From the NCBI RefSeq assembly GCF_988243305.1, contig NZ_OZ547136.1: a stretch of 64,000 nucleotides of DNA. One strand, given 5' to 3'. A model generated the notes under the pieces. It saw nothing but the letters and a program-made list of their open reading frames with translations, was not told where the DNA came from and ran no database searches. Made by a program: the position numbers and the translations under genes. Below are positions 1-47,645 of the stretch, piece by piece (position 1 is the first letter of the stretch; every line of letters begins with the position of its first letter).

Positions 1-63
1 AGGTGGTTTATTTACAGTCTTAATGAGTGGAAGAGGCGGAGGTTTTTCCTCCGCCTGTGTGCG

Positions 64-1065
64 TCAGAGTTTAGCGAATTTTTCGAGGGTGCGAATAAGC
101 TGCGTGACGAAGCCATATTCGTTATCATACCAGGCGACCGTTTTCACCAGCTGTAAATCGCCCACGGCGGTAATTTCGGTTTGCGTGGCATCAAACACCG
201 ACCCGAAATGGCTGCCAATGATATCGGAAGAGACTATTTCTTCATCGGTATAACCAAATGACTCGTTATTGGTGGTTGCTTGTTTAAGTGCGTTATTCAC
301 CTCTTCGGCAGTCACTTTTTTTGCGAGAATGGACACCAGCTCAGTGACCGAACCTGTTTTGACCGGCACGCGTTGCGCATGACCTTTCAGTTTGCCGCTC
401 AGTTCCGGGATCACCAGACCAATGGCTTTTGCCGCACCTGTAGTGTGGGGAATGATATTTTCTGCCGCTGCACGTGAAGCGCGTAGATCTTTACCACGCG
501 GGCCATCCACCAGTGACTGAGTGCCGGTATAGGCATGAATGGTCGTCATCGTGCCGACTTCTATTCCGAAACTGTCGTGCAAGGCTTTGGCCATCGGTGC
601 AAGACAATTAGTGGTGCATGACGCCACGGAAACAATGGTGTCGTTGCCATCCAGTGTGTCGTCATTGACGTTATAAACGATGGTTTTCATTTCACCGGCA
701 GGGGCGGAAATCAACACCTTCTTCGCACCAGCATCAAAGTGCGCCTGCGATTTCTCGGCGGAGGTATAAAAGCCAGTACATTCGACAATGATTTCTGCGC
801 CTTTCGCTTTCCATGGAATATTTTTAGCCTCTTTTTCGGCGTAAACCGCGATACTTTTTCCATCAACGATAAGTGAATCTTCCGTGAAATCAACGCTCCA
901 GGGGAACGGTCCGTAGTTTGAATCATGTTTCAGCAGGTAGGCGAGAATTTTTGGGGAAGTGAGATCATTAATAGCGACAATGTCTATGTTGCTTTTGACT
1001 TCAAGTAATCGACGCAACACCAGTCGACCGATACGACCAAAACCGTTAATACCAACTTTACTCAT
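64..1065 (-). CDS. gapC: glyceraldehyde-3-phosphate dehydrogenase, GapC-type, intact 333 aa
   Basis: Full-length ORF with N-terminal NAD-binding motif INGFGRIGR and active-site region SCTTNCLAP; position upstream of cybB matches E. coli gapC. Confidence 0.9.
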
Positions 1066-1253
1066 GGTCTTCTCCTGTCAGGAACGTTCGGATGAAAATT
1101 GATCCTTTCCAGGCTTAGACCAGGATGGCGGGATGGGCAATCTACATTCTTGCCGTGAAACGTAACGTACTGAAAACGGGTGAACAATATTTAATGAAAT
1201 TTTAAGAAAAGCTCGTTATGTTAACAGCAAATTGTTTTAAAGCAGGAAATGTT

Positions 1254-1784
1254 ATGGAAAATAAATACTCTAGGTTACAAATCAGCATTCACTGGCTGGT
1301 CTTTTTGCTGGTTATCGCAGCGTATTGCGCAATGGAGTTTCGTGGTTTCTTCCCACGTAGCGATCGGCCGCTCATCAACATGATTCATGTTTCCTGTGGC
1401 ATCACAATTCTCGTGCTGATGGTGGTTCGTCTTTTGTTAAGGCTGAAATACCCAACCCCGCCGATTATACCTAAGCCAAAACCGATGATGACGGGACTGG
1501 CGCATTTGGGACATTTGGTGATCTATCTCCTGTTTATTGCGCTGCCAGTGATTGGTTTGGTGATGATGTATAACCGGGGCAACCCGTGGTTTGCGTTTGG
1601 TATGACGATGCCTTATGCATCAGAGGCCAATTTCGAACGGGTTGATAGCTTAAAGTCGTGGCATGAAACGCTGGCGAACCTGGGATACTTTGTCATCGGG
1701 TTGCACGCTGCGGCTGCACTGGCACACCACTATTTCTGGAAGGACAACACACTTCTACGCATGATGCCGCGTAAACGTTCCTGA
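1254..1784 (+). CDS. cybB: cytochrome b561
   Basis: ORF call 1218-1784 trimmed to ATG at 1254 (MENKYSRLQISIHW...) giving 176 aa as recalled for CybB; AGGAAA upstream; multi-TM haem-binding protein. Confidence 0.9.
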   Translation: MENKYSRLQISIHWLVFLLVIAAYCAMEFRGFFPRSDRPLINMIHVSCGITILVLMVVRLLLRLKYPTPPIIPKPKPMMTGLAHLGHLVIYLLFIALPVIGLVMMYNRGNPWFAFGMTMPYASEANFERVDSLKSWHETLANLGYFVIGLHAAAALAHHYFWKDNTLLRMMPRKRS

Positions 1785-2028
1785 AGGATATTTAAAGAAA
1801 ACGCCTGTACTAAAACCGACCCGTGGTACAGGCGAAGAATACGGGCCTACATCGGAAGCGCCTATTATATTTATTTGTATGACAAATAAAACCATAATCC
1901 TGGTCCATACGTCCATCTGGCTTATCTTTAATCAATTCACCCGATCTTTGATCTCATCAACGGTATCAAAATAAACCAGCGTATAACGTTCAAATCGAAC
2001 ATAAGATTCGATAAACCATGGAGGTTAT

Positions 2029-2202
2029 ATGAAAAAACTGGCACTTATTTTGTTTATGGGAACGCTTGTTTCCTTTTATGCCGATGCCGGGCGCAAACCC
2101 TGTTCTGGTTCGAAAGGGGGGATCTCACACTGTACGGCAGGCGGCAAATTTGTCTGTAATGATGGTTCTATTAGTGCATCGAAAAAAATATGCACTAACT
2201 GA
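2029..2202 (+). CDS. ydcA: small secreted protein YdcA (57 aa)
   Basis: Hand-translated ORF below the 60-aa table cutoff: MKKLALILFMGTLVSFYADAGRKP...KKICTN; signal-peptide-like N-terminus; position between cybB and hokB. Confidence 0.75.
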   Translation: MKKLALILFMGTLVSFYADAGRKPCSGSKGGISHCTAGGKFVCNDGSISASKKICTN

Positions 2203-2275
2203 AGCGTAAAAAAGGGGGGCCATGAGAAAATGAATCCGCTAGTCAGATGCGCGGGGAAAATCCCCGCGCCTGCCC

Positions 2276-2469
<194 letters not shown>

Positions 2470-2483
<14 letters not shown>

Positions 2484-2530
2484 TCGTTGGCCTCGGTTGA
2501 TAGAAATATCGGTCGGGGCCTTCGTCTTTC
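2470..2530 (+). ncRNA. sokB: SokB antisense RNA (approximate position)
   Basis: Inferred from hok/sok family architecture: antisense RNA complementary to the mok translation-initiation region; boundaries not determined from sequence. Confidence 0.35.
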
Positions 2531-2757
2531 TGATTCCCGGTTAGCCTGAAAACAGAAAGTCTCAGGCACCCGTGAGCATCCTATGTGGTTTCCTTAGGGA
2601 CGAAAATAATCACCTGACGAAATTGCGTGCTGTTTTCCAGAATTTTTCGTCATTCGGTTTAGCCCGTTTAATCATTCGTTACTCTCTTCATCCCAATGGC
2701 ATTATTCTTCTCTGCCATAATTGTTGTAAAAATGTGACGCAAAGAGGTTTTTGGTCG

Positions 2758-2784
2758 TAAGAAATTACCGTCAAGTGCCGATGA
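2758..2784 (+). promoter_or_regulatory. candidate sigma-28 (FliA) promoter of trg
   Basis: TAAGAAAT - 11 nt - GCCGATGA, resembling the flagellar class 3 consensus TAAAGTTT-N11-GCCGATAA, about 40 nt upstream of trg ATG. Confidence 0.5.
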
Positions 2785-2823
2785 CTTTCTATCAGGAGTA
2801 AACCTGGAAGAGAGACAACGGTA

Positions 2824-4464
2824 ATGAATACAACTCCCTCACAGCGATTAGGTTTTTTGCATCACATCAGGCTGGTTCCGTTATTTGCCTGCATTCTTGG
2901 CGGTATCTTAGTTCTATTCGCATTAAGTTCAGCTCTGGCTGGCTATTTCCTTTGGCAGGCCGATCGCGATCAGCGGGATGTTACTGCGGAGATTGAGATT
3001 CGGACCGGGTTAGCGAACAGTTCAGATTTTTTGCGTTCAGCCCGGATCAATATGATTCAGGCTGGTGCTGCGAGTCGTATTGCTGAAATGGAAGCAATGA
3101 AGCGAAATATTGCGCAAGCCGAATCGGAGATTAAACAGTCGCAGCAAGGTTATCGTGCTTATCAGAATCGGTCGGTGAAAACACCTGCTGATGAAGCCCT
3201 CGACACTGAATTAAATCAACGCTTCCAGGCTTATATCACGGGTATGCAACCGATGTTGAAATATGCCAAAAATGGCATGTTTGAAGCGATTATCAATCAT
3301 GAAAGTGAGCAGATCCGACCGCTGGATAATGCTTATACCGATATTTTGAGCAAAGCCGTTAAGATACGTAGCGCCAGAGCCAACCAACTGGCGGAACTGG
3401 CCCATCAGCGCACCCGCCTGGGTGGGATGTTCATGATTGGCGCGTTTGTGCTTGCCCTGGTCATGACGCTGATAACATTTATAGTGCTACGTCGGATCGT
3501 CATTCGTCCACTGCAACATGCCGCACAACGGATTGAAAAAATCGCCAGTGGCGATCTGACGATGAATGATGAACCGGCGGGTCGTAATGAAATCGGTCGC
3601 TTAAGTCGTCATTTACAGCAAATGCAGCATTCACTGGGGATGACAGTAGGGACTGTTCGACAGGGTGCGGAAGAGATTTATCGTGGCACCAGCGAAATTT
3701 CAGCTGGCAATGCGGACCTGTCATCTCGCACCGAAGAACAAGCGGCGGCTATCGAACAAACTGCCGCCAGCATGGAGCAACTTACTGCGACGGTGAAACA
3801 GAATGCGGATAACGCGCATCATGCCAGCAAACTGGCGCAAGAGGCTTCTATTAAAGCCAGCGATGGCGGGCAGACGGTTTCCGGTGTAGTAAAAACGATG
3901 GGCGCTATCTCCACGAGTTCGAAGAAAATTTCTGAGATCACCGCCGTCATCAACAGTATTGCTTTCCAGACGAATATTCTGGCACTGAATGCTGCCGTTG
4001 AAGCCGCGCGAGCGGGTGAGCAAGGGCGTGGATTTGCCGTTGTCGCCAGCGAAGTACGGACACTCGCAAGCCGCAGCGCTCAGGCGGCGAAAGAGATTGA
4101 AGGCTTGATCAGTGAATCAGTCAGGTTAATTGACCTGGGGTCGGATGAGGTGGCAATGGCAGGGAAAACCATGAGCACTATTGTTGATGCCGTCGCGAGT
4201 GTCACACATATCATGCAGGAAATCGCCGCTGCCTCGGATGAACAAAGCAGAGGCATAACTCAGGTTAGCCAGGCGATTTCTGAAATGGATAAGGTGACGC
4301 AACAGAATGCTTCTCTGGTAGAAGAGGCCTCAGCGGCGGCGGTGTCCCTTGAAGAACAGGCGGCACGATTAACTGAGGCGGTGGACGTATTCCGTCTGAA
4401 CAAACATTCTGTGTTGGCAGAACCTCGCGGAGCGGGTGAACAAGTTAGTTTCGCTACGGTGTGA
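2824..4464 (+). CDS. trg: methyl-accepting chemotaxis protein III (ribose/galactose sensor)
   Basis: 546-aa ORF with two TM segments, HAMP region and highly conserved MCP signalling domain ([31 protein letters not shown]). Confidence 0.95.
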
Positions 4465-25832: not shown

Positions 25833-26642
25833 ATGAAAGTTCAATTGTATAAATTCACGGAAGATAAAAATAAAACCCTTACCTTCAGGTGGACGAAAAA
25901 ACACTTTGAGTTTTGTATGGATAATAAAATCTTTTTAAATCATAAGGGGAAGAAGTCGTATAAAGAAAGAAATTTATTTCTTTTCTCAAAAGGTGACAAG
26001 ATAACAATTGAAGATAATGTTATTGCTGAAGAATATTCAACAATGCCTGTAAAAAATTTCTCCAGTGTCGGCGCTTTTTCATTCCCGACCTGTCATTTTA
26101 CAGGGAATATACATATAGGTCGATTTTGTAGTATTGCATCAAATGTAAAAATAATGGGTGGAAATCATCCTTTGAATCGTTTTACTACTCACATGATGAC
26201 TTATAACGGTGAATTTGATAAGTTTGCTAAGAGTGAGTTTGAACGTAGCTGGACATTGAAACCATTCATTACCAAACCTGAAAATCCGATTATAGGAAAT
26301 GATGTCTGGATAGGAAATGATGTTGTACTGAAAGGTGGCATCGCAATAGGTGATGGTGCTGTTATTGCTGCCAATTCCGTTGTTACCAAAGATGTGCCCC
26401 CATATGCCATAGTTGCAGGAGTTCCTGCAAAAATAATCAGATTTAGATTTGATTCAAATGTTATTGATGAATTGTTGAGAATAAAGTGGTGGAATTATAA
26501 TTACTCAGATCTTCCGGATAATAACAAATGTGATGATATAAATTATTTTGTTGAAGAGATGAATCGATTGATATCAAATGGAAATATTCAAGAGATGGAC
26601 TATAAAAAATTCAATCTTTCTGAGATATTTAGAGACCTATAA
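25833..26642 (+). CDS. xenobiotic acetyltransferase (XAT class, Vat/CatB-like hexapeptide-repeat)
   Basis: C-terminal 200 aa closely parallels streptogramin and chloramphenicol acetyltransferases (IGNDVWIGNDVVLKGGIAIGDGAVIAANSVVTKDVPPYAIVAGVPAKIIRFRF...IKWWNY); true start may be internal; AT-rich gene. Confidence 0.75.
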   Translation: MKVQLYKFTEDKNKTLTFRWTKKHFEFCMDNKIFLNHKGKKSYKERNLFLFSKGDKITIEDNVIAEEYSTMPVKNFSSVGAFSFPTCHFTGNIHIGRFCSIASNVKIMGGNHPLNRFTTHMMTYNGEFDKFAKSEFERSWTLKPFITKPENPIIGNDVWIGNDVVLKGGIAIGDGAVIAANSVVTKDVPPYAIVAGVPAKIIRFRFDSNVIDELLRIKWWNYNYSDLPDNNKCDDINYFVEEMNRLISNGNIQEMDYKKFNLSEIFRDL

Positions 26643-37651: not shown

Positions 37652-39616
37652 ATGTCCTTAAAAGGTCTTCGCTTTACGCTGGAGGTTGACGGCCAGGAGC
37701 CGGACACCTTTGCAGTGGTGAATTTCAGGTTAATCCAGAACCAGTCATATCCGTTTGTGATGAGTGTGGATGTTGCCAGCGACTCTTTTATGCAGACGGC
37801 GGAGATGCTGCTGGAGAAGAAGGCGACACTGACCATCTGGCAGGGCGCAGTGGCGCAGCGTTATGTCACCGGCGTGGTGGCGGGTTTTGGCATGCAGGAG
37901 AATAACGGCTGGCAGATGCGTTATCACCTGCGTATTGAGCCGCCGTTATGGCGGTGCGGGCTGCGGCAGAACTTTCGTATCTTCCAGCAGCAGGATATCC
38001 GGACGATATCGGCCACGTTACTGAACGAGAACGGCGTCACGGAGTGGACGCCGCTGTTTTATGAGGACCATCCGGCGCGGGAGTTCTGTGTCCAGTACGG
38101 AGAGAGCGACCTGGCGTTTCTGTCCCGGCTGTGGGCGGAGGAGGGAATTTTCTTCTTTGAGCGGTTTGCGGCGGACAGTCCGGAGCAGAAGCTGACGCTG
38201 TGCGACGATGTGGCGGGGCTGTCACAGGCGGGGGAGTTTCCGTTTAACCCGGACACATCGGCAGGAGCGGAGACGGAGTGTGTCAGTATGTTCCGTTATG
38301 AGGCGCATGTCCGCCCGTCATCGGTGCAGAGCCAGGATTACACGTTTAAGGTGCCGGACTGGCCGGGGATGTATGAGCAGCAGGGTGAGAACCTGAACGG
38401 ACAGCTGGCGCAGTATGAGATATTTGATTATCCGGGAAGGTACAAGGATGAACAGCACGGCAAGGATTTCACGCTGTACCGGATGGAGAGCCTGCGCAGT
38501 GATGCGGAAAAGGCCACAGGGCAGAGTAATTCACCGAAGCTGTGGCCGGGAACGCGGTTTACGCTGACGGGGCATCCGCAGAAGATGCTGAACCGTGAAT
38601 GGCAGGTGGTACAGAGCATACTGTCAGGAAGCCAGCCGCAGGCGCTGCACGGCAGCCAGGGGAGAGGAACCACGCTGGGCAATCAGTTAGAGGTGATACC
38701 GGCGGACCGGACGTGGCGTCCACGGCTGCAAAGCAAACCGAAGGTGGACGGGCCACAGAGCGCCATTGTCACCGGTCCTGCGGGAGAGGAAATCTTCTGC
38801 GACGAACACGGACGTGTGCGAGTGCAGTTTCACTGGGACAGGTATAACCCGGCAACGGAGGCGAGTTCGTGCTGGGTGAGGGTGTCACAGGCGTGGGCGG
38901 GGCCGGGGTTCGGTAACCTGGCGATACCGCGGGTGGGCCAGGAGGTGATTGTTGATTTCCTGAACGGCGACCCGGACCAGCCGATAATCATGGGACGGAC
39001 ATACCATGAGGACAACCGTTCACCGGGGAGTCTGCCGGGGACGAAGACGCAGATGACGATACGGTCGAAGACCTATAAAGGTAGCGGATTTAACGAGCTG
39101 CGGTTTGAAGACGCCACCAGTAATGAGCAGGTGTATATCCATGCGCAGAAGAACATGGATACGGAGGTGCTCAACGACCGGACAACGGATGTGAAACATG
39201 ACCATACGGAAACCATCGGTAACAACCAGAAGATAACGGTGGTGAAGGGCCAGACGGTGAATGTGGGGAGCAAAAAGGAAGGTGGTCATGACCAGAAAGT
39301 GACAGTGGCGAATGACCAGACCATTACGGTACAAAACGATCAGCGGCTGGATGTTACCCACGATCGTCACAAGGATGTAGGGAACGATCAAATCAGTAAG
39401 ATAATAGGAAAAGATACCGAAGAAGTCGTGAAATCCCAGGATATTAAAGTTGGAGAAGATTACAGCCTGACAGTTACCAACAGCCTCACCATTAAAGTCG
39501 GTGAATGCTTACTGAAAATGAATAAGGACGGTACTATCATTCTCAATGGTAAAAGTATCCAGATTGAAGGAAAAGATAAAATCAATATTTTCGGCGCAGA
39601 TATTGATCTGGATTAA
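37652..39616 (+). CDS. vgrG: VgrG spike protein (T6SS)
   Basis: 654-aa ORF; characteristic VgrG N-terminus (MSLKGLRFTLEVDG...FAVVNFRL...) and C-terminal Val/Gly-rich beta-helical repeats (VKGQTVNVG..., TVQNDQRLDV...). Confidence 0.9.
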   Translation: MSLKGLRFTLEVDGQEPDTFAVVNFRLIQNQSYPFVMSVDVASDSFMQTAEMLLEKKATLTIWQGAVAQRYVTGVVAGFGMQENNGWQMRYHLRIEPPLWRCGLRQNFRIFQQQDIRTISATLLNENGVTEWTPLFYEDHPAREFCVQYGESDLAFLSRLWAEEGIFFFERFAADSPEQKLTLCDDVAGLSQAGEFPFNPDTSAGAETECVSMFRYEAHVRPSSVQSQDYTFKVPDWPGMYEQQGENLNGQLAQYEIFDYPGRYKDEQHGKDFTLYRMESLRSDAEKATGQSNSPKLWPGTRFTLTGHPQKMLNREWQVVQSILSGSQPQALHGSQGRGTTLGNQLEVIPADRTWRPRLQSKPKVDGPQSAIVTGPAGEEIFCDEHGRVRVQFHWDRYNPATEASSCWVRVSQAWAGPGFGNLAIPRVGQEVIVDFLNGDPDQPIIMGRTYHEDNRSPGSLPGTKTQMTIRSKTYKGSGFNELRFEDATSNEQVYIHAQKNMDTEVLNDRTTDVKHDHTETIGNNQKITVVKGQTVNVGSKKEGGHDQKVTVANDQTITVQNDQRLDVTHDRHKDVGNDQISKIIGKDTEEVVKSQDIKVGEDYSLTVTNSLTIKVGECLLKMNKDGTIILNGKSIQIEGKDKINIFGADIDLD

Positions 39617-39631
39617 TCTGGAGAAATTAAC

Positions 39632-40573
39632 ATGAATATTGAAAATGAAACTGGTTTTCCTCACTTTCAGTTCGAAAAAGTGGGATATTATGGTGAGTTA
39701 TTCACAGTAGTGGTAGTTAATCAGACATTTGATTTTTCATATAGCGGCGGTCTCTGTCTGATTGCGGATGAGCAGCGACTGCCACTGATGACCGACTCCT
39801 GGTACGGCGAACCGGAAAGCAGCAGTCTTAAAACAGCAACCGATTTGGTTTGCAGAAAAGTCAGGGCAGATGTTTTATTAAATGGACACGCATGGCATGC
39901 CACCGGGGAAACCACTCGATGGCAGGCCAGTTTACAGGTGGGTAATCTTCAGCGCCAATTTGATATATGTGGCCCTTGCCAATGGCAATATATATCTAAC
40001 CGCTGGCAACTTAGCGAACCTGAATTAACTGATCGGGTACTGTTACGCCATGAACTGGCGTCAGCCAGTGAATTTAATCCTGTAGGCATTGTTATTCCCT
40101 CCCTGATAACGCTTGGCGATAAATCGCCCTGTCCAGCTCCACAGTTATCTGCCTCACCAGGAGCTATTTGCCGTAGCTGGCCTTCACGATTGCGCTATGC
40201 CAGAGGTTTTACAGAACAGTGGCAAAAGACTGTTCAACCTTTTTATCCAGATGAATTCGATTTTGCATTCATGAATTATTCTCCACCAGAACAACAATAC
40301 GATGGTTATTTAATTGGCAATGAAAAAATTATATTGAACGGCCTGTTACCTTCTAAAATGGAACAAACTTGTTTCCTTCCAGATATTAGACTATTGGCGT
40401 ATTTGTTTTACCGCTCTGATAAAAACGTAGAACTGCGCCCATTGTTGGCTGACACACTGACCATCCACACAGACGATGAGCAACTAACACTACTCTGGCG
40501 CTTAACGCTCCCCGTGGATTCTCTTCCACAACGTATTGTTTTGACGACGGAGCAGAGGGGACCTCATGGCTGA
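39632..40573 (+). CDS. candidate T6SS adaptor/chaperone (DUF2169-like by position and size)
   Basis: 313-aa ORF between vgrG and a PAAR-like effector, overlapping the effector start by 8 nt; family assignment rests on synteny, not on a recognised motif. Confidence 0.5.
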   Translation: MNIENETGFPHFQFEKVGYYGELFTVVVVNQTFDFSYSGGLCLIADEQRLPLMTDSWYGEPESSSLKTATDLVCRKVRADVLLNGHAWHATGETTRWQASLQVGNLQRQFDICGPCQWQYISNRWQLSEPELTDRVLLRHELASASEFNPVGIVIPSLITLGDKSPCPAPQLSASPGAICRSWPSRLRYARGFTEQWQKTVQPFYPDEFDFAFMNYSPPEQQYDGYLIGNEKIILNGLLPSKMEQTCFLPDIRLLAYLFYRSDKNVELRPLLADTLTIHTDDEQLTLLWRLTLPVDSLPQRIVLTTEQRGPHG

Positions 40574-41699
40574 AAATCATATTGGTTGTCGTGAATCGAA
40601 GTACGTTGCGATATGTATTGCGCCTGATGTCTGCAAGGTTGGTGATGCGATAGTGCCGTTTGACAGCTTTCAGAACCTGACACATGAGAAAATTTATATC
40701 AGCAATGTCAGGGCACGGGGCAATCCAATACTGACCGTGGACTGTATTATTGCAGGTACACGAAGTAATGCCGGGAAAGGTGTCAGTTCTGGCACCAGTC
40801 TGGGCAGCGGTGACTGCCGGATACTGACAGGCGTGGATCATATAAAGTGCAAGGGAAAGCCGGTAGCCAGGAATCTTTCGCTGGTTGCCATGAATAATGA
40901 TAATACTGTTGGAAAACTGTATACCCAGACAAACCCGCCAAATCAGATAATACCTGTTAAAGAATCATCGCTTTGGGCCAAGTATCTGGAACTGCAAATA
41001 CAACAGCAAGAGTTTGAGCTTGAGTCCAAAAAGCAAGAAGCAGATGCAATGATAGGATTAGGCAAGGCATTTATTAATGGCTGGTATATGTTGGGTGCAT
41101 TGATTGCCAAAGGTCAGATGCAAAATGACATTGCCCAAATGGAAAGTAATATTGCTCTGGCGAGAGGGTTGGGGATGGATACCCAAATTATGGAGCGGGC
41201 GAATGAGACCAACAGGGAGGTAATGGAAACTATTGATCCTAGAGAGCCATTGTTGAAACCTGCCAATGAAACCCAAGCAATGGCGATGGAGGTTGAGCCA
41301 TGGCTGGAACTTATGACCGGGGTTGGAGCACTGGTGAAAGGTTTGGTCAAGTTTTCAGCGAAGTTTGCAATAAAATCGGTTGGCAGAATGGGGAGGAGCG
41401 GTGCTAAAATTGTGCTGGATGCAAATGGATTGCCTATTCCTGTTCCTCCAAGCGTTGGCGCTGCGGGAAGAGTTCCGAGAGTATTACAAACTGGAGGTAA
41501 TACTCTTGAGGCAAGAACTGCCAGGGAGTTAAATGAATTTTTTGGTAAAAATATTAACAGGAGAGAATGGGGGAAAGCTTTAGAAAAGTTGAAAAAAGAT
41601 TTACGCTTACGAGGTGATCACCATGGTCGAATACTTGATAATGGTGATTATATTGATGACTCAGGAAATATTTTAGGAAACATAGAAGATTATTTATGA
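40566..41699 (+). CDS. candidate T6SS effector with N-terminal PAAR-like (DUF4150-type) domain and unassigned C-terminal domain
   Basis: 377-aa ORF; N-terminal Cys-containing module (VAICIAPDVCKVGDAIVPF...GKPVARNLSLVAMNNDNTVG); helical linker; divergent C-terminal ~110 aa; AT-rich. Confidence 0.6.
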   Translation: MAENHIGCRESKYVAICIAPDVCKVGDAIVPFDSFQNLTHEKIYISNVRARGNPILTVDCIIAGTRSNAGKGVSSGTSLGSGDCRILTGVDHIKCKGKPVARNLSLVAMNNDNTVGKLYTQTNPPNQIIPVKESSLWAKYLELQIQQQEFELESKKQEADAMIGLGKAFINGWYMLGALIAKGQMQNDIAQMESNIALARGLGMDTQIMERANETNREVMETIDPREPLLKPANETQAMAMEVEPWLELMTGVGALVKGLVKFSAKFAIKSVGRMGRSGAKIVLDANGLPIPVPPSVGAAGRVPRVLQTGGNTLEARTARELNEFFGKNINRREWGKALEKLKKDLRLRGDHHGRILDNGDYIDDSGNILGNIEDYL

Positions 41700-42175
41700 T
41701 TAAGAATATACAATCAAGGCTTACCCCGATATCTCATGAATATCCAAGTTGTGATGAGTGCTATGCTAGCCTCTTGATTTACACAGGTAATACTCACCCT
41801 AATGAAATAAGTATTCACTTAGAACTTGAGCCAACATCAATTAATATAAAAGGAGATGAAATTATTACTCTATCGGGAAAGAAAAGATATGCAAAAAATT
41901 CATATTGGATGCTCTCGTCAGAAAATCTAGTGAACTCGAAAGATATTCGAGAACATCTGGATTGGCTACTTCACAAACTTGGACCTAAATCATCAAATAT
42001 TGCAAAATTGCAAGCATTAGAAAATATTTCAATGGGTATTGACTGTACCTGGAGATCATTGAATTGGCACGGTGGGCCAACTTTATGGCCTGAGCAGATG
42101 AAAATAATGGCTAATCTTGGATTGGAGTGTTCATTTGATATTTATTTCGTCGGCAATGAAGATGGCAATCTTTAA
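41696..42175 (+). CDS. candidate cognate immunity protein (cytoplasmic)
   Basis: 159-aa ORF, ATGA overlap with effector stop, no signal peptide, AT-rich; role inferred from position only. Confidence 0.45.
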   Translation: MIKNIQSRLTPISHEYPSCDECYASLLIYTGNTHPNEISIHLELEPTSINIKGDEIITLSGKKRYAKNSYWMLSSENLVNSKDIREHLDWLLHKLGPKSSNIAKLQALENISMGIDCTWRSLNWHGGPTLWPEQMKIMANLGLECSFDIYFVGNEDGNL

Positions 42176-42288: not shown

Positions 42289-43580
42289 CAGGGAAAGATC
42301 ACGTAACGCTGCTTTTTTGTACTAAATAATTCGCATTTTATGTTTAAAAATTGAGATATTCCTCATTACCTGAAGCTGTTTTTTATTGAGTATACATGAT
42401 CAAATACTCCTTACATAATTAAGGAGAACACAATGGAACTTAAAAAATTGATGGAACATATTTCTATTATCCCCGATTACAGACAAGCCTGGAAAGTGGA
42501 GCATAAATTGTCGGATATTCTACTGTTGACTATTTGTGCCGTTATTTCTGGTGCAGAAGGCTGGGAAGATATAGAGGATTTTGGGGAAACACATCTCGAT
42601 TTTTTAAAACAATACGGTTATTTTGAAAATGGTATTCCTGTTCACGATACCATCGCCAGAGTTGTATCCTGTATCAGTCCTGCAAAATTTCACGAGTGCT
42701 TTATTAACTGGATGCGAGATTGCCATACTTCAGATGATAAAGACGTCATCACAATTGATGGAAAAACGCTCCGGCACTCTTATGACAAGAGTCGCCGCAG
42801 GGGAGCGATTCATGTCATTAGTGCGTTCTCAACAATGCACAGCCTGGTCATCGGACAGATCAAGACGGATGAGAAATCCAATGAGATTACAGCTATCCCA
42901 GAACTTCTTAACATGCTGGATATTAAAGGAAAAATCATCACAACTGATGCGATGGGTTGCCAGAAAGATATTGCAGAGAAGATACAAAAACAGGGAGGTG
43001 ATTATTTATTCGCTGTAAAAGGAAACCAGGGGCGGCTAAATAAAGCCTTCGAGGAAAAATTTCCGCTGAAAGAATTAAATAATCCAGAGCATGACAGTTA
43101 CGCAATTAGTGAAAAGAGTCACGGCAGAGAAGAAATCCGTCTTCACATTGTTTGCGATGTCCCTGATGAACTTATTGATTTCACGTTTGAATGGAAAGGT
43201 CTGAAGAAATTATGCGTGACAGTCTCCTTTCGGTCAATAATAGCAGAACAAAAGAAAGAGCCAGAAATGACGGTCAGATATTATATCAGTTCTGCTGATT
43301 TAACCGCAGAGAAGTTCGCCACAGCAATCCGAAACCACTGGCACGTGGAGAATAAGCTGCACTGGCGTCTGGACGTGGTAATGAATGAAGACGACTGCAA
43401 AATAAGAAGAGGAAATGCCGCAGAATTATTTTCAGGGATACGGCACATCGCTATTAATATTTTAACGAATGATAAGGTATTCAAGGCAGGGTTAAGATGT
43501 AAGATGCGAAAAGCAGCCATGGACAGAAACTACCTGGCGTCAGTCCTTGCTGGGAGCGGGCTTTCGTAATCTTGCCCTGG
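42289..43580 (+). mobile_element. H-repeat element (ISAs1-family), intact copy
   Basis: About 1.3 kb bounded by imperfect terminal inverted repeats (left CCAGGGAAAGATCACG, right CGTAATCTTGCCCTGG) enclosing one 378-aa transposase ORF. Confidence 0.8.
42433..43569 (+). CDS. H-repeat-associated protein / ISAs1-family transposase (YdcC/YhhI-like)
   Basis: 378-aa [35 protein letters not shown]... matching recalled E. coli H-repeat proteins. Confidence 0.88.
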
Positions 43581-44087: not shown

Positions 44088-46166
44088 TTGATAATGATAA
44101 TCAGCCCTCCAATATTGCATGCGCATATAGACACTGAAAAAGACTCTGACTGGGTAAACAGAATGATGTCTGTTGATCCAGAGAGAAATTTCCCAATGAA
44201 TAGCGGTCGTTCTTGGCATGGTGGAGTTCATTTGAACGGCAATCTGTCAGAGACTGTTAGGTGTATTGCCGATGGGAAGGTTATTTCAATACGCCAGCCA
44301 GAACCAGCGAAAAATACAGTTCCCCCGTTAAATTATAACGGAGTTACGGATAAAGGCTATGTTCTGATAAAACATGAAACAGAAATCGGTAGTGGAGAAG
44401 AGGGTAAAATCGTCTATTACTCATTATATATGCACCTGAGAAGCATTGACAGTAATGTGCAGCCGGGAAACACGCTATACCGGAAAGAACCGGTTGGTGC
44501 AGCAGGGATGGTGGACGGACAGAACGCCTTTCATTTTCAGATTTTTTGTGATGATGAAAACATTCAGAAAATCACAGGAAGAATATCACCGGAAACAGAC
44601 CTGAATAAAGATGGACGAACTAATGTGGTTTACGGTGATAGTCATTTTTATCTCCCTACCGGAACACCGATTTATGGGGACATGCCGGAAGAAAACTCGC
44701 TTGCGAACAACAGTCCGGTACAAAGAACCAGCGTGCCATTGTATGTCACAATGAGTTTTGATAAAGGCAATTGTACGATGGTGACGCGTCAGCAGCATGA
44801 AGTGCTGAGTGATTCCTATACTGAAGTAGGTTCTCCCTTGATTAATGCTGATGGTAAGGATTATGAATACAATCTCTATTCCTACGCGCTGCAACTCTAT
44901 CCGAAAAGCCCAAGTGCCGGTTATGAGATGCTGCGTTTTGGTCGGGTTGTTAATACAGAATATGAAGAATTAGTCCCGGCGGATGCGCCGCTGTGGAGAA
45001 CAATCAATACGCCACAGGGTAAAGGCGTTGTTAACTTAGGGGCGAGAGATATCAGGGTTTACAGCGACGGTGATTTTCCACACTGGACAGGGTGGAAACT
45101 GGTGAACGATGATGCGGACACCAACAGCCAGTGCAATTCACCAACAATCCTGTGTACAACCCGCAATGACCTAAGTCGGATGATTTGTCATTTTCCGCTA
45201 GAATGGGACAGCGCCACCGTGGAATCACGGTTTGAGTGGCTGAAATCACCCAATGACGTATTGAGTAAGCCGATGACAGAGCCTGACCTGGATTTGCTGA
45301 TAGAACACTGTAAGGCGCTTTGTTTGGTAGAGAATCCGTTACCTGCCAGGCGTGTATGGCATTTTGATCCCAGGCAGTTTATTGCACATTTCAGGAAATG
45401 TGGATGGTTAGGAGAAAATGATATTATAAGTGTGGTAAGACGTTATCAAAATGCTTATCCCATGACATCAGAACTTACAAGACCATTAAGTAAAGACACT
45501 CTAATTGAGCGGATTACTAGCCAAGGACAAAATAGCAGTGGTGAGATGATAAGACCTGCAGGGTTGAAAAATGAACTGTCAAAGTCACTAAGGAAGTACT
45601 TAATTACAACCCCATTGCGGATTGCGCATTATTTCGGTCAGATGGCGAGAGAAACAGGCAGATTTTCGTCTTTTATAGAGAATGGTGATTTGAGTTATTT
45701 TGATATGTATGAGCCAGGAACAGAACAGGGACTTAAGCTTGGAAATAATGTTGTTGGTGATGGTGCAAGATTTAAAGGCAGAGGTACCATACATCTAACT
45801 GGTCGTGAGAATTATAGAAATTATGGAAAGTATAGAAATCCGTCAGATGATGATTTTTTTACTACAGGACCCAATAACCAACTCCCAGTTGAAAATGCCT
45901 ATTTTTCTTGCGATGCCGGGGGATACTTTTGGGCAAGTAAGCAAAAATACATAATGGTAAGCCATCGATTGACACCTAGTGGTAGTTTAGGCGTTAATTA
46001 TTGGGCGGATAAAGGATGTAGTTTGTCACATGCCAGAGAAGTTACACGGCGAATAAACCCAGCAGCAGATGGCTTCGATTTAGTACGTTGGCCAGCATTT
46101 GAGCATTCTTGGTATGTATTGAATGATGAAATAACACCTCCACTTAATTACATAAGGATTGTTTAA
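44088..46166 (+). CDS. predicted two-domain peptidoglycan hydrolase: M23/LytM-like N-terminal domain plus GH19-like (lysozyme/chitinase-family) C-terminal domain; candidate T6SS cargo effector
   Basis: 692-aa AT-rich ORF. N-terminal region follows the M23 motif order (WHGGVHL, ADGKVISI, GYVLIKHE, YYSLYMHL, NAFHFQIF). C-terminal region carries GH19 hallmarks (YFGQMARETGRF and KGRGTIHLTGRENYRNYG). Start codon uncertain. Confidence 0.6.
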   Translation: MIMIISPPILHAHIDTEKDSDWVNRMMSVDPERNFPMNSGRSWHGGVHLNGNLSETVRCIADGKVISIRQPEPAKNTVPPLNYNGVTDKGYVLIKHETEIGSGEEGKIVYYSLYMHLRSIDSNVQPGNTLYRKEPVGAAGMVDGQNAFHFQIFCDDENIQKITGRISPETDLNKDGRTNVVYGDSHFYLPTGTPIYGDMPEENSLANNSPVQRTSVPLYVTMSFDKGNCTMVTRQQHEVLSDSYTEVGSPLINADGKDYEYNLYSYALQLYPKSPSAGYEMLRFGRVVNTEYEELVPADAPLWRTINTPQGKGVVNLGARDIRVYSDGDFPHWTGWKLVNDDADTNSQCNSPTILCTTRNDLSRMICHFPLEWDSATVESRFEWLKSPNDVLSKPMTEPDLDLLIEHCKALCLVENPLPARRVWHFDPRQFIAHFRKCGWLGENDIISVVRRYQNAYPMTSELTRPLSKDTLIERITSQGQNSSGEMIRPAGLKNELSKSLRKYLITTPLRIAHYFGQMARETGRFSSFIENGDLSYFDMYEPGTEQGLKLGNNVVGDGARFKGRGTIHLTGRENYRNYGKYRNPSDDDFFTTGPNNQLPVENAYFSCDAGGYFWASKQKYIMVSHRLTPSGSLGVNYWADKGCSLSHAREVTRRINPAADGFDLVRWPAFEHSWYVLNDEITPPLNYIRIV

Positions 46167-46170
46167 AACA

Positions 46171-46674
46171 ATGAATTTTAAAAAAACAATAATCACTTCG
46201 GTAGGTTTGATATTTATTTCATTCTCTTTTGTGGCAGAGTGCTCTCAACTCAAAAATTTGAATAATTACTCAGTGATGCTTTGTGGAAAAGTGTCAAGTA
46301 ATATCCTTGATGATATTGGTGGTTATAAAGAAAGAGATAAAAAATCCGAAATGGTAGATTTACTTATATTAATTAGTAATGACGAGCCTATCGGTGTTTC
46401 TGAGACCAAAGTGATTTCTAATGGTAAAATATATTTTAAGGGGGAAAGTACTATGAACTTGGATGCCTCATTCATTATGACAATAAATGGTGGAGTTCAT
46501 ACTGACACTGTCACTTATATATCAAAGAAGAATAAAATTATCGGGGGCTACTTTTATAATAATGAGAGTAAAACTGATAAGCTTAAGGAAGTATATATCT
46601 CAAACACAGGAACTGTATATCATATAAATATTGAAAGTGTCAGCGATGATAAATGTCTTGATAAATTTAAGTAA
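46171..46674 (+). CDS. candidate periplasmic immunity protein (signal peptide)
   Basis: 167-aa ORF from ATG 46171 (MNFKKTIITSVGLIFISFSFVAECSQ...), 4 nt after the hydrolase stop; cleavable Sec-type signal; very AT-rich. Confidence 0.45.
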   Translation: MNFKKTIITSVGLIFISFSFVAECSQLKNLNNYSVMLCGKVSSNILDDIGGYKERDKKSEMVDLLILISNDEPIGVSETKVISNGKIYFKGESTMNLDASFIMTINGGVHTDTVTYISKKNKIIGGYFYNNESKTDKLKEVYISNTGTVYHINIESVSDDKCLDKFK

Positions 46675-46942: not shown

Positions 46943-47645
46943 GGCAGGGAAAGATCATCGTAAGTACACTTTTTGTACTAAATAATTTGCATTTTATGTT
47001 TAAAAATTGAGATATTCCTCATCACCTGAAGCTGTTTTTTATTACTTATATATGATCAAATACTCCTTACATAAATAAGGAGAACAAAATGGAACTTAAA
47101 AAATTGATGGAACATATTTCTATTATCCCCGATTACAGACAAGCCTGGAAAGTGGAACATAAATTATCGGATATTCTACTGTTGACTATTTGTGCTGTTA
47201 TTTCTGGTGCAGAAGGATGGGAAGATATAGAGGATTTTGGGGAAACACATCTCGATTTTTTGAAGCAATATTGTGATTTTGATAATGGTATTCCTGTTCA
47301 CGATACCATTGCCAGAGTTGTATCCTGTATCAGTCCTGAAAAATTTCATGAGTGCTTTATTAACTGGATGCTTGACTGCCATTCTTCAGATGATAAAGAC
47401 GTCATTGCAATTGATGGAAAAACGCTCCGGTACTCTTATGACAAGAGTCGTCGCAAGGGAGCGATTCACGTTATTAGTGTGTTCTCAATAATGCACAGTC
47501 AGATTCCTTGGAAGATCAAGACGAATGAAAAAAACAATGAGATTACAGCTGTTTCTGAATTTCTTAACATAATGGGTATTAAAGGAAAAATAATTGCACC
47601 GATCCAATGTGATACCAGAAAGACATCGCTAAGAAGATAGCTATA
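46943..47645 (+). mobile_element. H-repeat element, 3'-truncated and degenerate copy
   Basis: Left end and first ~550 bp of transposase gene near-identical to the intact copy, then frameshifted (..[20 protein letters not shown]) and lost about 50 nt upstream of the cyclase gene 3' end. Confidence 0.8.
47089..47640 (+). pseudogene. truncated H-repeat transposase
   Basis: 183-aa ORF identical in N-terminus to the 378-aa transposase but terminating early after indels. Confidence 0.8.

Follow-up and report, generated by a model that had tools for sequence, protein, structure and literature searches.

An intact gapC gene, very probably encoding a second working GAPDH, in a non-K-12 strain of Escherichia coli

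In the window (here, the whole 64,000-nt stretch of contig NZ_OZ547136.1, RefSeq assembly GCF_988243305.1), gapC is an intact gene, orthologous and syntenic to the K-12 pseudogene of the same name. Its product retains the catalytic residues of a glyceraldehyde-3-phosphate dehydrogenase (GAPDH) and is nearly identical to a proven enzyme, and its coding sequence has been kept under purifying selection. We regard the following explanation, taken as a whole, as very probable. gapC would be an intact chromosomal gene of a non-K-12 Escherichia coli, encoding a 333-residue GAPDH of homotetrameric fold in which Cys150 is the nucleophile and His177 the base; the protein would oxidise glyceraldehyde 3-phosphate (G3P) to 1,3-bisphosphoglycerate (BPG); and it would serve as a catalytically competent isoenzyme, controlled by RpoS and used in stationary phase, during slow growth or under environmental conditions, and not as the main glycolytic enzyme. 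The essentials of this picture have been known since Hidalgo et al. 1996, Espinosa-Urgel and Kolter 1998, the UniProt entry P58072 and the structures of 2021.

The gapC gene, its product and its locus

A single open reading frame, running from an ATG start to a TAA stop, makes up the gene. The first-pass annotation had described an intact 333-aa gapC frame at 64-1065, which is correct in coordinates and length; the strand, absent from that description, is minus. It had also recognised complete NAD-binding and catalytic regions, and in a Pfam search of the protein both domains are indeed matched essentially at full length: the NAD-binding Rossmann domain Gp_dh_N (PF00044) over profile positions 2-100 of 101 (E 8e-36) and the catalytic domain Gp_dh_C (PF02800) over positions 1-158 of 158 (E 3e-58). 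The protein scores 446.8 bits with the NCBIfam equivalog for type I GAPDH (TIGR01534), above the cut-off of 367.2. These domain matches, together with the open frame seen against the K-12 alignment described below, are far beyond chance.

Cys150 lies within VASCTTNCL and His177 within TTIHAYT, so that the [AS]SCTTN motif is present with a histidine about 27 residues downstream. A residue check further finds Arg11, Ile12, Asp34, Ser120 and Asn315 retained, as well as all three phosphate-site residues (Thr180, Arg195 and Arg232). The protein has a dinucleotide-binding loop of the GxGxxG type and carries Asp34 within AINDL, an acidic residue that would favour NAD over NADP. By sequence criteria, the product is classified as a type I NAD-dependent phosphorylating GAPDH (EC 1.2.1.12).

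The housekeeping enzyme of K-12, GapA (b1779), has its fold, domains, catalytic Cys and His and the SCTTNC motif in common with GapC, but is encoded at a different locus, is regulated differently according to the literature, and is only 47% identical in amino acid sequence. GapC is therefore an old, separately maintained paralogue, and the window protein stays well below the GapA equivalog (NF011954; 301 bits against a cut-off of 662). E. coli also has epd (gapB), which makes gapC its second true GAPDH and the third member of the family. The product of epd, erythrose-4-phosphate dehydrogenase, shares superfamily and domain architecture with GapC. The window protein scores under the cut-offs of both Epd models (279.5 against 539 for NF010058 and 275.9 against 530.55 for TIGR01532), and GapC is therefore not an Epd; it is likewise below the cut-off of the model for ArsJ-associated GAPDH (309.6 against 450). 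The records that match it most closely, namely UniProt P58072 (GapC of O157:H7), WP_000048667.1 with its relatives, and EcGAPDH1, agree with it in locus, in length (333 aa) and in catalytic residues, at 98-99% amino acid identity.

The gene order, with aldA convergent and cybB divergent on either side of gapC, is that of the K-12 pseudogene locus and of all sampled genomes (Table 1). The GC-rich hairpin between the two convergent genes (fold energy of -19.9 kcal/mol for window positions 21-63) is probably a bidirectional terminator common to aldA and gapC; a terminator scan did not report it because its T-tract is weak. On the other side of the gene, the 188-nt region separating gapC from cybB presumably holds the gapC promoter, and shows 2-13 mismatches and 0 indels against K-12 and nine other strains. 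We note that the cybB reading frame, taken from its first ATG (1218), is 188 aa long, and that the start annotated in K-12 (MENKYS) lies 12 codons further in, at 1254. No arsJ gene neighbours gapC, either among the ORFs of the window or at the K-12 locus.

Table 1. Features of gapC and its surroundings, in window coordinates
Feature	Position	Strand	Basis
aldA 3' end (...VVYLQS; TAA at 21-23), convergent	1..23	+	Translation; aldA annotated there in K-12 and other genomes
GC-rich hairpin GGCGGAGG-TTTTT-CCTCCGCC between the aldA and gapC stops	35..55		Sequence
gapC CDS, 333 codons and TAA	64..1065	-	ORF; Pfam and NCBIfam matches; intact 'gap' CDS annotated in 11 sampled E. coli genomes
A7 run, gene nt 744-750, codons 248-250, intact in the window; A6 in K-12 (second lesion, frameshift)	316..322	-	Alignment with K-12
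Catalytic His177 codon (CAT)	535..537	-	Sequence; H177A in EcGAPDH1 causes a ~8,000-fold activity loss
Catalytic Cys150 codon (TGC), in the SCTTNC motif	616..618	-	Sequence; C150 essential in the 99%-identical EcGAPDH1
Codon 39, AAA (Lys) in the window; TAA in K-12 (first lesion)	949..951	-	Alignment with K-12
gapC-cybB divergent intergenic region, 188 nt	1066..1253		Colinearity with K-12 and nine other strains
Shine-Dalgarno AGGAG, 6 nt before the gapC ATG	1072..1076	-	Sequence; kept in 9/9 compared strains
cybB (cytochrome b561 / superoxide oxidase), divergent neighbour	1254..1784	+	ORF; K-12 annotation

Intact and broken copies across E. coli

Global alignment of the window gene with the pseudogene of K-12 MG1655 (b4493, 1001 nt; formerly gapC_1/gapC_2, b1417/b1416) gives 96.6% identity, with 33 substitutions and a single nucleotide missing from K-12. 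Both loci are orthologous, with a colinear upstream region and the same Shine-Dalgarno sequence. The alignment places all damage on the K-12 side, where the pseudogene status given by the first-pass annotation resolves into two lesions, a TAA at codon 39 and a frameshift at codons 248-250 caused by contraction of A7 to A6, whereas the window has neither frameshift nor internal stop. K-12 additionally carries R18G, which is also missing from the window allele.

The same annotation had concluded that the strain is not K-12. We reach the same view from the divergence of gapC from its K-12 counterpart and from the 100% identity of window positions 1-4065 (4,065 nt) to E. coli CP091391.1 in GenBank, an identity that extends to an SRA-derived assembly. 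NCBI lists the exact window protein under E. coli as a type I GAPDH (EEY7859539.1 and others, 121 contigs). These matches in public assemblies place the window in an ordinary E. coli lineage that has already been sequenced. Among RefSeq complete E. coli genomes, identity does not exceed 98.5% over the first 25 kb and 99.1% over gapC; the combination of I29, F110 and A248 marks a lineage that is absent from this set and present in CP091391.1. We considered a missed frameshift or an assembly artefact, and rejected both, because the sequence is colinear with 11 intact alleles without gaps and is matched at 100% identity by two independent assemblies in public databases.

Of 5,426 complete E. coli genomes, 5,417 contain gapC DNA; at the nucleotide level, the window gene is 95-99% identical to that of 5,327 genomes and at least 99% identical to that of one more. 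Sixty of these matches, spaced evenly along the ranking, were sampled: 47 are 1002 nt long, 12 are 1001 nt long and one is truncated. Eleven of the 1002-nt copies were retrieved; every one is annotated as an intact CDS and has no stop in its translation, and the window allele is colinear with each of them, with no stop and no indel. An intact gapC is thus not unusual, since the 1002-nt copy is present in ~78% of the complete genomes in a spread sample, and it is a weak strain marker because it is the majority state in E. coli. For annotation, gapC should be called a normal CDS (type I GAPDH) and not be flagged as unusual, and metabolic reconstructions copied from K-12 would wrongly leave out a second GAPDH for the source strain.

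The K-12 lesions are themselves widespread. Two 57-nt exact-match probes were run against the 5,426 genomes, one for the K-12 stop-codon allele and one for the K-12 A6 haplotype; the first is found exactly in 1,152 genomes and the second in 1,046. About 20% of the complete genomes have the K-12 lesions, which are also seen in wild isolates from humans and pigs and are therefore not specific to K-12. In the pig isolate ETEC4085 (Belgium), the codon-39 stop and R18G are present, yet the A7 run is intact, while the human stool isolate 720632 (Pakistan) has a gapC identical to the K-12 pseudogene. We therefore find that the stop preceded the frameshift, and that both arose in nature. Strain CX15 has an intact allele whose product is identical to the protein of PDB entry 7C5F, and this allele lies only two substitutions and one deleted base from the K-12 pseudogene; decay, where present, is therefore recent. 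The contrast between an intact gapC in natural isolates and a mutated one in laboratory strains is already known, having been reported in 1998; what the present comparison corrects is the common assumption of laboratory accumulation, as the K-12 lesions are natural, stepwise polymorphisms.

Other copies have been broken independently. MS6198 has a separate frameshift at nt 418, LF82 has a 19-aa in-frame deletion, and GapC proteins in the databases show frameshifts near codons 217, 309 and 330. gapC is clearly dispensable in some lineages. A further independent lesion, and changes at the neighbouring genes, were also observed. In NZ_CP144926.1 (2501-4678), IS1A lies between a 198-nt remnant of gapC and a truncated aldA, a single IS1-associated deletion having removed both 3' parts; in the CSF isolate N24 (NZ_CM165898.1, 1344-1602), gapC is intact and the adjoining aldA is annotated as frameshifted; and in GenBank CP170316.1 (135-2381), a gapC identical to that of the window adjoins two IS1 copies that replace the cybB-to-trg segment.

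Enzyme activity, selection and expression

The closest solved structures are those of EcGAPDH1 (PDB 7C5F-7C5R), in which 330/333 residues are identical to the window protein. The only differences from 7C5F are I29 (V in the structure), F110 (L) and A248 (G), substitutions that are conservative. F110 and A248 are each seen in other intact E. coli alleles. A point against activity is that F110 sits in an AH(L/I)xAGAKKV helix at a position otherwise occupied by Leu or Ile. EcGAPDH1 performs the NAD-dependent oxidative phosphorylation of G3P to 1,3-BPG with a KM of 0.73 mM for G3P and a kcat of ~2.2e5 per min; mutation of C150 or H177 abolishes activity or lowers it 8,000- to 38,000-fold, and complexes with NAD, G3P, phosphate and BPG have been reported (PMC8615399). 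The same paper names Arg78 as an NAD contact; 7C5F and the window protein both have Lys at position 78, and we did not use this contact.

Comparison with the 11 intact E. coli alleles yields dN/dS values of 0.013-0.067 (mean 0.041). A similar range, 0.015-0.060, is obtained with 14 intact 333-codon orthologues from E. albertii, E. whittamii, Citrobacter and related enterobacterial genomes, and Trabulsiella, all 14 of which conserve Cys150 and His177. These ratios point to strong purifying selection on gapC. A working GAPDH enzyme from the window allele, the second functional paralogue proposed in the first-pass annotation, is very likely because it differs at 3/333 positions from the active EcGAPDH1, has the catalytic residues in place and shows low dN/dS. 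Its activity as this exact allele, its regulation in the source strain and its physiological role are what we infer.

The evidence for expression is indirect, and includes the colinearity of the gapC-cybB intergenic region. A sigma-S ChIP-seq peak falls in the K-12 region equivalent to this intergenic region, transcripts of the gapC fragments are rpoS-dependent in K-12 derivatives, and these transcripts are among those changed in rpoS/cAMP-CRP mutants. In EPEC, a gapC transcript has been detected and is CsrA-dependent. According to a later summary by the same group, Espinosa-Urgel and Kolter 1998 found the gapC promoter preferentially active in fresh water, and gapC intact in environmental isolates and mutated in laboratory strains. 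We note that PMC3080795 uses a K-12 gapC deletion as though gapC encoded an enzyme. A search for gapC in the secreted-GAPDH literature on EHEC and EPEC returned nothing usable.

Could the gene be open but silent or decaying, that is, cryptic and making no present contribution to fitness, with no lesion as yet in this lineage? The repeated independent inactivation of gapC in E. coli lineages shows that loss is not lethal, and it is established that GapA supplies glycolytic GAPDH. A sigma-70 promoter consensus scan of positions 1-1300 also returned no site (2.1 expected by chance), a negative that is uninformative because the literature indicates a sigma-S promoter. However, the low dN/dS, ~0.04 within E. 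coli and similarly low across genera, is incompatible with long-term neutrality, all sampled 1002-nt copies are intact, sigma-S polymerase binds the promoter region, which is transcribed even in K-12, and the decay in K-12 is recent. We therefore hold a silent gene to be unlikely.

Very improbable, in our judgement, is an active GapC with another primary role, be it as an NADP-using or gluconeogenic isoenzyme, an Epd-like erythrose-4-phosphate dehydrogenase or an arsenate-linked GAPDH: gapC fragment transcripts of K-12 derivatives do rise with gluconeogenic genes in slow-growing strains, and bacterial GAPDH paralogues elsewhere divide glycolytic and gluconeogenic duties (PMC12663938), but the protein scores below the erythrose-4-phosphate dehydrogenase and ArsJ-associated cut-offs and above that for generic type I GAPDH, has Asp34, the usual determinant of NAD preference, lacks arsJ among its neighbours, and has in EcGAPDH1 a 99%-identical counterpart that uses NAD in turning over G3P and has been crystallised in complexes with NAD, G3P and BPG.

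At the level of the population, gapC may be under lineage- or niche-dependent selection, with tight constraint in most lineages, yet repeated independent inactivation, and with K-12-type decay as a natural, two-step process; we offer this reading tentatively and consider it doubtful. If the losses were adaptive or followed lifestyle (host-restricted versus water-exposed), gapC would become a marker of ecological specialisation, of which the window would be an example of the retained state only.

Other features of the window and of related genomes

Several further differences from known genomes were observed. In the hokB-trg region (2200-2824), the window is free of the IS2 and IS150 copies found there in the closest complete genomes. 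A 269-aa hexapeptide-repeat acyltransferase ORF (25833-26642) lies in ~1.3 kb of DNA between patD and mnaT that is extra relative to strain Ch1.

Where K-12 has its rhsE remnant, the window holds a type VI secretion cargo module (37652-42175), consisting of a VgrG (654 aa), a DUF2169 protein (313 aa), a PAAR-like toxin-domain protein (377 aa) and a DUF4279 protein (159 aa), the last of which is possibly an immunity protein. Strain Ch1 has a VgrG and an Rhs core protein at the equivalent position instead. Further along, an ISAs1/H-repeat DDE transposase gene (378 aa, 42433-43569) and a truncated second copy (47089-47640) flank, as cargo, an ORF of 692 aa (44088-46166) and another of 171 aa (46159-46674); a Pfam search at E 1e-5 gave no match for either.

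Finally, CP089930.1, deposited as 'E. coli' strain E69, is ~89-91% identical to the window (~89% over 13 kb), far below the identity seen within E. coli, and probably represents a separate Escherichia lineage deposited under that species name.
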